Assembly (NCBI GenBank): GCA_045616385.1
Contig: JAZLGQ010000003.1
Location: 1,438-65,437, forward strand
Direction of reading: 5' to 3'
Length of the DNA stretch: 64,000 nt
Origin: Candidatus Cryptobacteroides sp.
Lineage (GTDB): Bacteria > Bacteroidota > Bacteroidia > Bacteroidales > UBA932
Under the pieces are notes generated by a model. It had not been told where the DNA came from and did not search any database. It saw only the letters and a list, made by a program, of their open reading frames with translations. Both the position numbers and the translations under genes were made by a program. The stretch's first letter is position 1. Each line of letters starts with the position of its first letter. Shown here piece after piece: positions 9,197-10,568 of this stretch.

Positions 9197-10159
9197 TCAG
9201 GTGTTTTGCGGTTGCAGGATTTCAAGAACTTCGTCAAGGGTGAGTGCTTCGGCGATGTCGAAGCCTCCATTTTTAGTGCGACGCAGCGAGCTCAGGAAGG
9301 CTCCGCTGCCGAGCGCTTCGCCCAGGTCGCGGGCGAGGGCCCTGATATAGGTACCCTTTGAGCAGTCGACTTTTATCATTGCCGTCGGGAGCGCATATCC
9401 CGAAATATCCGCGACACTGATTCTGTTCTTCTTCTCTTCCCCCGCCTTTGGGAATTCTTTGCTCTCCCGTGATAACCTTCCGCTTCGCTCCATCCCTCCC
9501 ACTGTCTCCTGCGTCCCTTCGGAACTTGTATCCAGCGAGCCCCACCCTCTGACGTGTCCGAGGGTGGACACGGGTTGTTCACGGGAGACAAAGAATTCTC
9601 TATTAGCGGGGGAAGAGAAAGATAGTAATTCCAGCCCGTAGATATTGATGCGGTTGGCCTGAAGGATGTTGTTCTCTTCGGTGAGTTGTCCGGCCTTGTA
9701 AAGCTTGCGTGCGGTTTCGTAGGCGCGCACTCCGTCGACGGACTTGGCGCTGAAAAGCGGAGCCACCTGATCCTGCTCTCCGATGAACTCCGGCAGCAGC
9801 TCGCGTATGGTCCGCTCGGATACTCCGTCCAGGGGGAACTCCCGGTCGATATCCTTCTCGAGGTCGTAGGACGGCGTTGTCGCGCCGAAAGTGACCCCTG
9901 CGATGTACTGCTTTTCAGAACGCTGCAGTTCTTCCGCCCGCTTGGTGGCCGGGCCGAGGCACACAAGAAGAATGCCGGTCGCGAGGGGATCGAGCGTCCC
10001 CGCGTGGCCGACTTTCAGGTTCTTCTTTCCGAAATGGCGGATTGCCGCATACTTCACCTTGCGGATGACATCGGCAGATGTCCATCTGTAAGGCTTGTCA
10101 ATCGGCAGGACTATCCCTTCCGGATAGTCTTCGATATTATTTGACAGGTATCTTGTCAA
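9197..10159 (-). CDS. truB: tRNA pseudouridine(55) synthase TruB carrying a ~63 aa in-frame insertion
   Basis: IDKPYRWTS, KVGHAGTLDPLATG (catalytic Asp), CSKGTYIRALARDLG and LRRT. Start uncertain (TTG 10159 or CTG 10147, inside the rpiB 3' end). Confidence 0.9.
   Translation of the reverse strand: MTRYLSNNIEDYPEGIVLPIDKPYRWTSADVIRKVKYAAIRHFGKKNLKVGHAGTLDPLATGILLVCLGPATKRAEELQRSEKQYIAGVTFGATTPSYDLEKDIDREFPLDGVSERTIRELLPEFIGEQDQVAPLFSAKSVDGVRAYETARKLYKAGQLTEENNILQANRINIYGLELLSFSSPANREFFVSREQPVSTLGHVRGWGSLDTSSEGTQETVGGMERSGRLSRESKEFPKAGEEKKNRISVADISGYALPTAMIKVDCSKGTYIRALARDLGEALGSGAFLSSLRRTKNGGFDIAEALTLDEVLEILQPQNT
9432..9619. mobile_element. Palindromic MITE-like element inserted in frame in truB
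   Basis: Imperfect terminal inverted repeats at 9432-9477 and 9573-9619 (outer 14 bp ttctcttcccccgc perfect; gaattctttg and tctcccgtga blocks also pair), plus internal hairpins. Mobility is inferred, not shown. Confidence 0.65.
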
Positions 10160-10568
10160 TGCGTCTCTGGTGGCGTCCGCCGGCGAACTCGGTTGAGAGC
10201 CATTCGCGAACCATAAGGTTGCACATCTGGTAGCTGGCAAATCTTGCCGGCATCACGAGAACGTTGGCATTGTTATGCTCCTTCACCAGGTGGGCGACGT
10301 CCTTGTTCCAGGCAAGTCCGGCGCGGATTCCCTGATGATGGTTCAGTGCGAGAGCCATTCCGTTGCCGGTACCGCAGATTGCGATGCCGCAATCAACCTC
10401 GCCTTCCTCGACGGCATAAGCCATAGGATGAGCAAAGTCTGCATAGTCACAGCTGTCACTTGTGTCGGTTCCGAAATTCACGACATCATAACCCTTGCCC
10501 AGAAGATAGCTGATCAGCTTTGATTTGTATTCAACGCCAGCGTGATCGCTGCAAATTCCGATTTTCAT
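10137..10568 (-). CDS. rpiB: Ribose-5-phosphate isomerase B
   Basis: SDHAG, CGTGNGM, HNNANVL and FAGGRHQRRIDKI. Confidence 0.95.
   Translation of the reverse strand: MKIGICSDHAGVEYKSKLISYLLGKGYDVVNFGTDTSDSCDYADFAHPMAYAVEEGEVDCGIAICGTGNGMALALNHHQGIRAGLAWNKDVAHLVKEHNNANVLVMPARFASYQMCNLMVREWLSTEFAGGRHQRRIDKIPVK

Follow-up and report, generated by a model that had tools for sequence, protein, structure and literature searches.

To our knowledge, selfish palindromes that lie in frame within genes are a textbook subject only for Rickettsia. The Rickettsia palindromic elements (RPEs), as far as the summary of Ogata et al. 2000 in PMC10969869 describes them, are palindromic, occur in frame within unrelated housekeeping genes as well as between genes, and have no known transposase. 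Imperfect inverted repeats are also sites of replication error. In Escherichia coli, template switching at such repeats homogenizes the arms, spreads complementarity, and inverts spacers (PMC7202029), and template switching between inverted repeats has likewise been described in yeast coding DNA, with spacer inversion as a by-product (PMC8604942). Here we examine a palindrome carried in frame by truB, the gene for tRNA pseudouridine-55 synthase, in a 64,000-nucleotide stretch of contig JAZLGQ010000003.1 from Candidatus Cryptobacteroides sp. (hereafter the window).

The truB insert probably descends vertically from an old insertion of a non-autonomous, multi-copy palindromic repeat that resembles the RPEs and has been remodelled in place by template switching. 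In the mechanism we propose, a core of small hairpins (P2 with an overlapping helix, P3, and P4) would form a junction, with a long stem, P1, closing it. After insertion, the palindrome would be remodelled during replication by switches of template from one arm to the other. A change in one arm would be copied to the other, the stem would spread outward, replacing host codons with the reverse complement of the flank across from them, and the core would flip between its arms. Microhomology deletions between short repeats across the hairpin would remove the core and leave palindromic footprints. Within genes, only whole-codon, stop-free insertions would survive. Such remodelling would account for a conserved core flanked by arms that are peculiar to each copy; on this reading the arms are largely made on site, and what is inherited is the core together with a short stretch of inner stem.

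The palindrome in truB

The features of the truB locus, with the evidence for each, are as follows.

9197-10159, minus strand: truB, the host gene, from the list of open reading frames (ORFs); TruB_N and TruB_C_2 detected; orthologues at 56-91% identity
9432-9619, minus strand: whole palindromic element (arms plus core), predicted to be translated as part of TruB; inverted repeat, fold, and length relative to orthologues
9573-9619, minus strand: 5' arm of stem P1 (sense being the truB coding strand); unlike the arms of all other copies in the genome; paired double changes relative to the orthologue in the nearest relative (locus L012)
9432-9477, minus strand: 3' arm of stem P1, whose outer part sits on native loop codons (..AGEEKKN); alignment with short-loop orthologues
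9478-9572, minus strand: conserved core, 95 nt, long-P3 subtype; blastn and nhmmer matches, alignment A1
9553-9572, minus strand: helix P2 (CGTGTCC 9566-9572 / GGACACG 9553-9559) with a 6-nt loop; covariation at pair 7-18, alignment A3
9544-9565, minus strand: second helix (CCCTC within 9560-9565 / GAGGG within 9544-9549), overlapping P2; 100% paired in 39 sequences
9498-9541, minus strand: variable hairpin P3, here the long form tipped by a small hairpin; fold, with pairing kept despite differences between copies
9482-9488, minus strand: mini-hairpin P4, GCGAAGC (GAA triloop), with GGGATGGA before and GGAA after; varies as a hairpin among copies

The truB open frame extends from 9197 to 10240 on the minus strand, and the public gene call (P0002, 320 aa) would start at 10159. 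Within it the element forms a 188-bp hairpin at 9432-9619. Its ungapped arms (9432-9472 / 9579-9619) are 73% complementary, and the bulged stem P1 (9432-9477 / 9573-9619) contains about 40 pairs. A 201-nt stretch carrying the element folds at -97.4 kcal/mol, compared to -63.5 +/- 4.3 kcal/mol for shuffled sequences (n = 200; z = -7.86), none of which folded as well. The inverted repeat and the fold bear out the initial annotation, made from the letters of the window, which had proposed a palindromic in-frame element in truB. The two overlapping hairpins it described, and the coding-strand GCGAAGC at 9482-9488, are present where it placed them, and the gene is intact as it held, with no stop or frameshift and with both TruB domains detected.

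Two quantitative claims of that annotation fare less well. It counted about 63 extra residues; the stretch from INIY to CSKGTY measures 303 nt here and 153-162 nt in short-loop orthologues, and because the outer arms take up native loop positions, the net gain is 47-50 codons. It also saw codon usage unlike that of the flanks. Third codon positions do differ (A/C/G/T 0.30/0.26/0.33/0.11 in the insert, 0.18/0.40/0.28/0.14 in the rest of the gene), but the difference is only moderate. Structure prediction, by which the annotation had hoped to place the insert, puts it in a low-confidence loop. In an AlphaFold2 model built on a 30-sequence alignment and mediocre overall (pTM 0.60), confidence (pLDDT) falls below 50 at residues 154-215, between strands at 133-149 and 226-233, so that the insert is predicted to be a disordered loop joining two strands. 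The orthologues come from Bacteroidales metagenome-assembled genomes (MAGs) of horse and ruminant gut, many of them labelled Candidatus Cryptobacteroides.

A multi-copy family

When the assembly that holds the window (1.52 Mb in 86 contigs, 78.7% complete) is searched with the element by blastn and nhmmer, the central ~100 nt are recovered and the arms are not. A hidden Markov model of the cores finds at least nine copies in this genome, including one on contig C29 whose core is 94% identical to that of truB. Each of the nine sits in a Pfam-confirmed gene whose reading frame continues through the element; four are sense and five antisense to the host gene, and at least four reading frames of the core are used:

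truB: core sense to the gene
argS: core sense to the gene
a miaB/mtaB-type radical-SAM gene (mtaB below): core sense to the gene
a GH94 phosphorylase gene: core sense to the gene
a ThiF-family gene (tcdA below): core antisense to the gene
folC: core antisense to the gene
ispG: core antisense to the gene
atpG: core antisense to the gene
a uvrA-like gene fragment: core antisense to the gene

The statement in the initial annotation that the truB element was the sole copy is therefore true of the window and false of the genome. Its larger proposal, a non-autonomous, multi-copy, RPE-like element residing in tolerant loops of housekeeping genes, is upheld by the nine in-frame genic copies and by dozens more copies in related genomes, where the family has both genic and intergenic members. 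Multiple copies in unrelated genes with the frame preserved are what it had suggested a BLASTN search might reveal. The arms proved to be private to each copy in this genome rather than fixed terminal repeats: every copy has its own long stem, and arms share at most the inner 10-16 nt with those of other copies. These inner nucleotides are related where the cores are similar, for example in truB and on C29.

That all nine copies are genic is unremarkable in a genome that is ~90% coding. The informative point is that the frame is kept in all nine; the chance that nine independent cases have a net length divisible by three is about 5e-5, stops ignored. Five of the six frames are stop-free across the truB core. 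Because the core is read in at least four combinations of frame and orientation, it encodes no conserved peptide. A peptide search of 5.8 billion proteins gave just seven matches (TruB, ThiF, and MetH), since the query covers one frame of one subtype. One match in public data is a MetH-like methionine synthase of 1118 aa (P0008) that carries the element peptide at 83% identity; this host gene was not seen in the present genome. Another (P0005, 361 aa, from a 13-kb contig in the European Nucleotide Archive) combines TruB_N, ThiF, and the element peptide in one protein, most likely because the truB and ThiF-gene copies, which are 94% identical, were mis-joined in a metagenome or truly recombined.

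The distribution of the family was examined by scanning genomes for a pattern of 28 nt from the 5' core, 17 of them fixed, with the reversed pattern as a control. Matches occur in 18 of 36 other genomes of the same genus and in none of 24 genomes of other families in the order. In a 200-genome sample of the family, 3 of 37 genera were positive, with up to 32 copies per genome. The reversed pattern gave zero matches in both scans. The element family is thus confined to a few genera of one Bacteroidales family, comprising Candidatus Cryptobacteroides-like gut MAGs. Identical 28-mers occur in three of these genera. One well-assembled genome, G030 (98% complete, 8 contigs), has 24 copies, mostly intergenic, among which at least nine form a subfamily that is 93-97% identical over ~170-190 nt and shares arms of 24-26 bp. 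This subfamily looks like a recent burst.

The burst brings forward the most serious alternative, that the repeat is an ordinary miniature inverted-repeat transposable element (MITE). On this account, a transposase encoded elsewhere would act on the folded core or the inner arms, and the private outer arms would result from later decay and repair. The shared arms of the near-identical copies in G030 fit this idea, as does the kinship of the inner arms in copies with similar cores. The patchy occurrence across genera, together with the identical 28-mers in three genera, suggests horizontal spread, and contig breaks at copies suggest that the repeats are recent. However, as the initial annotation had already noted for the window, there is neither a transposase ORF beside any copy examined nor a target-site duplication visible at any copy. 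Its suggestion that an HUH/Y1 enzyme mobilizes the element did not hold up: across 41 genomes of the genus, Y1_Tnp (PF01797) is not co-distributed with the copies, a result to be read with MAG incompleteness in mind. There is no PF01797 match in G000, G001, or G023, which have 8-10 copies each, and only sub-threshold ones in G030, whereas the element-free genomes G012 and G016 have 4-6. The reverse transcriptase domain RVT_1 (PF00078) likewise does not track copy number, with no match in G030, G000, or G001. Among recombinase and transposase families, these searches for a mobilizer covered Y1_Tnp and RVT_1. Overall, we give the MITE account, which is compatible with the interpretation we favor, a substantial minority chance.

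A repeat derived from a retroelement (a retron, a group II intron, or a sequence resembling a short interspersed element) was considered and set aside, given that no reverse transcriptase match occurs in the copy-rich genomes G030, G000, and G001. Many genomes of the genus also hold several open frames of ~290-380 aa, up to six each, with weak Y1_Tnp matches of the IS200-like or RAYT-like kind (RAYT, transposase associated with repetitive extragenic palindromic sequences); their distribution is unrelated to that of the element.

We can also imagine, as a conjecture that is rather unlikely to be correct, that the element spreads without a transposase of its own. A folded single-stranded DNA (ssDNA) core might stall or capture the replisome and be carried by copy-choice to new sites, with a preference for existing hairpins or old footprints, and then acquire a private stem and undergo flips. 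The presence of different core subtypes at the same site (in atpG, and in the truB loop of loci L015 and L067) fits copy-choice spread without proving it. If this were true, the element would be a self-propagating palindrome that continuously rewrites the loops of essential proteins.

Two intergenic regions deserve description. At the start of contig C2 of G023 (L117, 1-800), three copies lie head-to-tail with a 305-nt period in AT-rich non-coding DNA upstream of an ORF resembling chloramphenicol acetyltransferase. The array may have arisen by tandem amplification of an intergenic copy, or it may be a source locus that has a promoter of its own. In G030 (L253, contig C8, 478100-480600), about 930 nt of non-coding DNA (~800-1650 in the locus) separate two inverted copies and are dense with other small hairpin repeats; parts of this DNA are found again next to the element at several further loci of G030. 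It seems that another family of repeats accompanies the element in this genome or gathers beside it. The L253 spacer was considered as a possible master copy and rejected, as it holds other hairpin repeats and no convincing ORF.

Orthologous copies and remodelling in place

Two related genomes are used throughout, G265 (the genome of truB locus L012) and G266 (the genome of L013), both of which have orthologous sites. At truB, L012 carries the same element in the same orientation, and four base pairs of the stem, two inner and two outer, have changed on both sides. The outer changes alter the encoded residues on both sides of the loop. In L013 the core is absent, and in its place is a 47-nt quasi-palindrome that resembles the outer arms of L012 in inverted order, joined at a shared GAATTC. 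We read this as a deletion footprint, although the loop is just three codons longer than in the shortest orthologues.

The argS copy repeats this pattern. In G265 its arms are ~70% like those in the present genome, each pair of arms is still complementary, and P3 differs by compensatory changes. In G266 an in-frame deletion has joined the left arm, with 10 nt from the start of the core, to the outer right arm. Distant argS orthologues are 26-28 codons shorter while the palindrome spans 45 codons, and therefore part of the stem lies on native positions. Host sequence is overwritten at ispG. The right flank there is the conserved native MLDxAIxWGP, and the left flank, A-x-Y-L-A in six orthologues, is replaced in the present genome by a near-exact reverse complement of the right flank. 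Similarly, the left flank of tcdA in G265 and G266 is the reverse complement of the native VDAID codons. In rough agreement with arms made on site, argS has gained a net ~81 nt (core, 71 nt) and ispG a net ~90 nt (core, 69 nt). These values are approximate because native loops vary in length, and in truB and L015 the arms clearly add length. A core-free ispG orthologue (L229, in G014) has a quasi-palindrome of ~31 nt centered on CCCGGG exactly at the site of the C74 copy. It may be what a lost copy left behind, or a hairpin that predated insertion and served as its target.

Inversions and deletions accompany these changes in the arms. The tcdA core is antisense in the present genome and sense in G265 at the same site, and G266 has the G265 form minus 102 nt, deleted internally between short repeats. 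At folC the site and the compared stretch of 87 residues are the same, the core is flipped in G265, and the gene is 41 codons shorter in G266, the only site that may be cleanly empty. The mtaB copy is complete here, flipped and truncated in G265, and reduced to an arms-only footprint in G266. At atpG, a short-P3 antisense core is present here, a long-P3 sense core with different arms occupies the same position in G266, and a deletion derivative of the G266 form remains in G265. The deletion derivatives (argS, tcdA, and mtaB in G266; atpG and mtaB in G265) keep the arms or 10-27 nt of the core. Sites in G266/L013 that first appeared to be empty (truB, argS, tcdA, and mtaB) proved to be deletion footprints.

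The truB loop has been occupied in other ways as well. In loci L015 and L067 the core is oriented the other way and flanked by different arms; in L071 and L023 the loop holds other in-frame inserts, of 25-35 codons, that lack this core. On these sequence comparisons, the same permissive loops are apparently hit repeatedly. The L023 insert has an inverted repeat of its own and possibly represents another palindromic element family.

The flips raise the question of whether the element is an intragenic inverton, kept because reversible, enzyme-driven inversion switches a protein loop between two versions. In its favor, the folC and tcdA cores are inverted in place between related species with the frame kept both ways, five of the six core frames are stop-free, and intragenic invertons are documented in Bacteroides (PMC10028968). 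However, the hosts are housekeeping enzymes whose insert is predicted to be disordered, the copies in sister genomes decay by deletion, many copies in G030 are intergenic, and template switching, too, is known to produce inversions (PMC8604942). We therefore regard maintenance as a switch as improbable.

Core structure and comparison with known systems

On the sense strand the core reads P1, P2, a G-rich junction, P3 in a short or long form, GGGATGR, P4, GRAA, and the 3' arm. Its length among copies ranges from 56 to 114 nt, and a few copies lack P4. P2 is a helix of 7 bp, and its 6-nt loop pairs with five bases that are set three nucleotides beyond it. Because only three nucleotides are available to cross this 7-bp helix, the two overlapping helices may be alternatives rather than a pseudoknot. 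Covariation, which the initial annotation had recommended looking for, is seen in both. In alignment A3, pair 7-18 of P2 is GC in 27 sequences, UA in 8, CG in 2, AU in 1, and GU in 1, and the second helix has two pairs with compensatory changes (GC/UA/AU/CG and UA/CG). Among 39 distinct 5' domains, 97% of cells pair, compared to 30-64% in slid controls, and none of 500 shuffles reaches the score, a test that overstates significance because the search pattern fixes 17 of the 28 positions and the copies are related. All three pairs left free by the pattern show compensatory changes. These measurements were confined to the fixed-length 5' domain, because MAFFT aligned the variable P3 and P4 inconsistently; both hairpins differ among copies with pairing kept. 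The base of P1 adjoining the core covaries as well (AACC/GGTT, AAAC/GTTT, GACC/GGTC, and AAGG/CCTT).

Hairpin tips in the core are mostly GNA triloops on C-G closing pairs (GAA 19, GGA 9, and GCA 6). In 38 cores we counted 35 GNA triloops, where 5.5 would be expected; the maximum in 200 shuffles was 12. In DNA, the classic mini-hairpins of exceptional stability are d(GCGAAGC) and GNA triloops; in RNA, stable hairpins instead favor GNRA or UNCG tetraloops. In addition, G.T wobble mismatches in the arms of 30 arm-distinct copies number 38 on the core-sense strand and 12 on the other (p = 3e-4), with 14 copies leaning one way and 3 the other. The type of triloop, the wobble asymmetry, and the indifference to host orientation together suggest that the core most likely folds as single-stranded DNA of one particular strand.

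Several points tell against the interpretation we favor. The proposed ssDNA fold is drawn from sequence features, and strand-biased mutation could also produce the wobble asymmetry. In G030, orientation showed no relation to local GC skew in 20-kb windows (it alternates +,-,+,-,+ along the stretch of contig C7 where skew is negative). This null result neither helps nor hurts the ssDNA fold, because in-place flipping would erase any bias, and the skew itself is noisy. The covariation test has the bias already mentioned. Concerted change of the arms could result from selection for pairing or from arm-to-arm recombination, and the inversions could be catalyzed by one of the many Bacteroidales invertases. 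Translation of the genic copies as a disordered extra loop at permissive sites is an inference only, from frame conservation. Finally, no true pre-insertion site was found in a near-identical genome, and the alignment of more distant orthologues is too loose for a target or a duplication to be recognized.

It is very unlikely that the element works at the RNA level, whether as a structured RNA, as a ribozyme, or as something like an intron, and whether it would act within the host mRNA or be removed from it. A functional RNA could account for the covarying helices, the possible pseudoknot, the hairpin flanked by GAUGA..GAA, and the G.U-type wobbles favored on one strand. However, five of the nine copies are antisense, such that the host mRNA carries the complement, and the tips carry GNA triloops, not the tetraloops that stable RNA hairpins usually have. 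No reverse transcriptase is co-distributed. Searches of Rfam 15 over 9300-9750, with a permissive E up to 10, gave only chance-level eukaryotic long non-coding RNA models (E above 2), and those over three G030 loci gave no match. Frame keeping in all nine copies would not be required of an insert removed from mRNA, and the RNA excision or bypass that the initial annotation offered as an alternative is unlikely for the same reason, as every genic copy keeps the frame in either orientation. The GAUGA-[hairpin]-GAA arrangement by the closing stem was also considered as a hammerhead-like ribozyme and rejected: equivalents of C3/U4 and U16.1/A15.1 are absent, two hairpins occupy the place of stem I, and Rfam offers no support. 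Nor is an intein or intron indicated, given a TruB protein that shows TruB_N and TruB_C_2 only, an insert of ~50 codons, and a frame kept in all copies.

That the insert is a functional, lineage-specific TruB insertion palindromic by chance, or the assembly artefact that the initial annotation had allowed for, can be dismissed: the nearest relative's TruB does retain it at 91% protein identity (L012, insert included), but the same nucleotide core recurs in different frames and orientations of unrelated proteins with no common peptide, its conservation is at the nucleic-acid level with compensatory changes, the sister locus L013 has only a short arm-like quasi-palindrome, and the truB insert is present as well in independent MAGs and in assemblies from other studies.

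A separate, structurally defined family of in-frame palindromes has now been shown in gut Bacteroidales, inside essential genes. Once remodelled, such an element is a concrete and recurrent source of multi-residue change in the loops of conserved enzymes, change that could pass for positive selection or for "lineage-specific inserts." The repeats also break or mis-join metagenome contigs and inflate protein-family diversity, and they mark sites at which TruB, ArgS, IspG, AtpG, FolC, and others tolerate 40-60 extra residues. A strand-specific fold with DNA-type triloops makes the mode of movement testable. Full-text literature searches returned the RPE work, a MITE review without a Bacteroidales case, and the Bacteroides invertons, with no paper on this family, which appears to be undescribed in Bacteroidales.

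Among known systems, several share part of this behavior. Quasipalindrome template-switch mutagenesis, said to go back to work by Ripley in 1982, likewise involves multi-nucleotide arm matching, palindrome spread, and spacer inversion within coding sequence. Those cases are isolated short repeats, whereas the element described here is mobile and multi-copy, with stems of 25-50 bp or more (reaching 79 nt in one fold) and a structured spacer, and its template switching is deduced from species comparisons rather than observed. The intragenic invertons of Bacteroides (PMC10028968) are also genic segments flanked by inverted repeats, found in both orientations with the frame kept; they are single loci flipped by invertases within a population, in contrast to a dispersed family whose flips are known between species. 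Repetitive extragenic palindromic (REP) sequences, in the REP/REPIN-RAYT systems, and the hairpin ends of IS200/IS605 elements are comparable in being small hairpin repeats that probably act as ssDNA. However, most REPs lie outside genes and are linked to a RAYT gene, whereas here Y1_Tnp does not track the element and the hairpin architecture differs. As for classical MITEs, the arms are private in the element's own genome, and one G030 subfamily shares arms of 24-26 bp.

The closest likeness, at the level of description rather than of sequence, is to the RPEs. Both are palindromic repeats of ~100-190 bp that occur in frame in unrelated genes and in intergenic copies, keep the ORF, and have no known transposase. 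In size and copy number the element is RPE-like, with 9 copies here, up to 24-32 in relatives, and arms of 20-79 nt in a fold-based trace. The differences are that it belongs to a different phylum, has a conserved, covarying, multi-hairpin core, and has arms private to each copy. RPE families are each described, in the account given by PMC10969869, as encoding a conserved peptide, whereas copies of this element occur in both orientations and in several reading frames. A further difference lies in the in-place inversion, host-codon copying, and deletion footprints that the present comparisons document. The element is thus an RPE-like coding repeat whose structured core is well defined and for which the evidence of remodelling in place is unusually clear.

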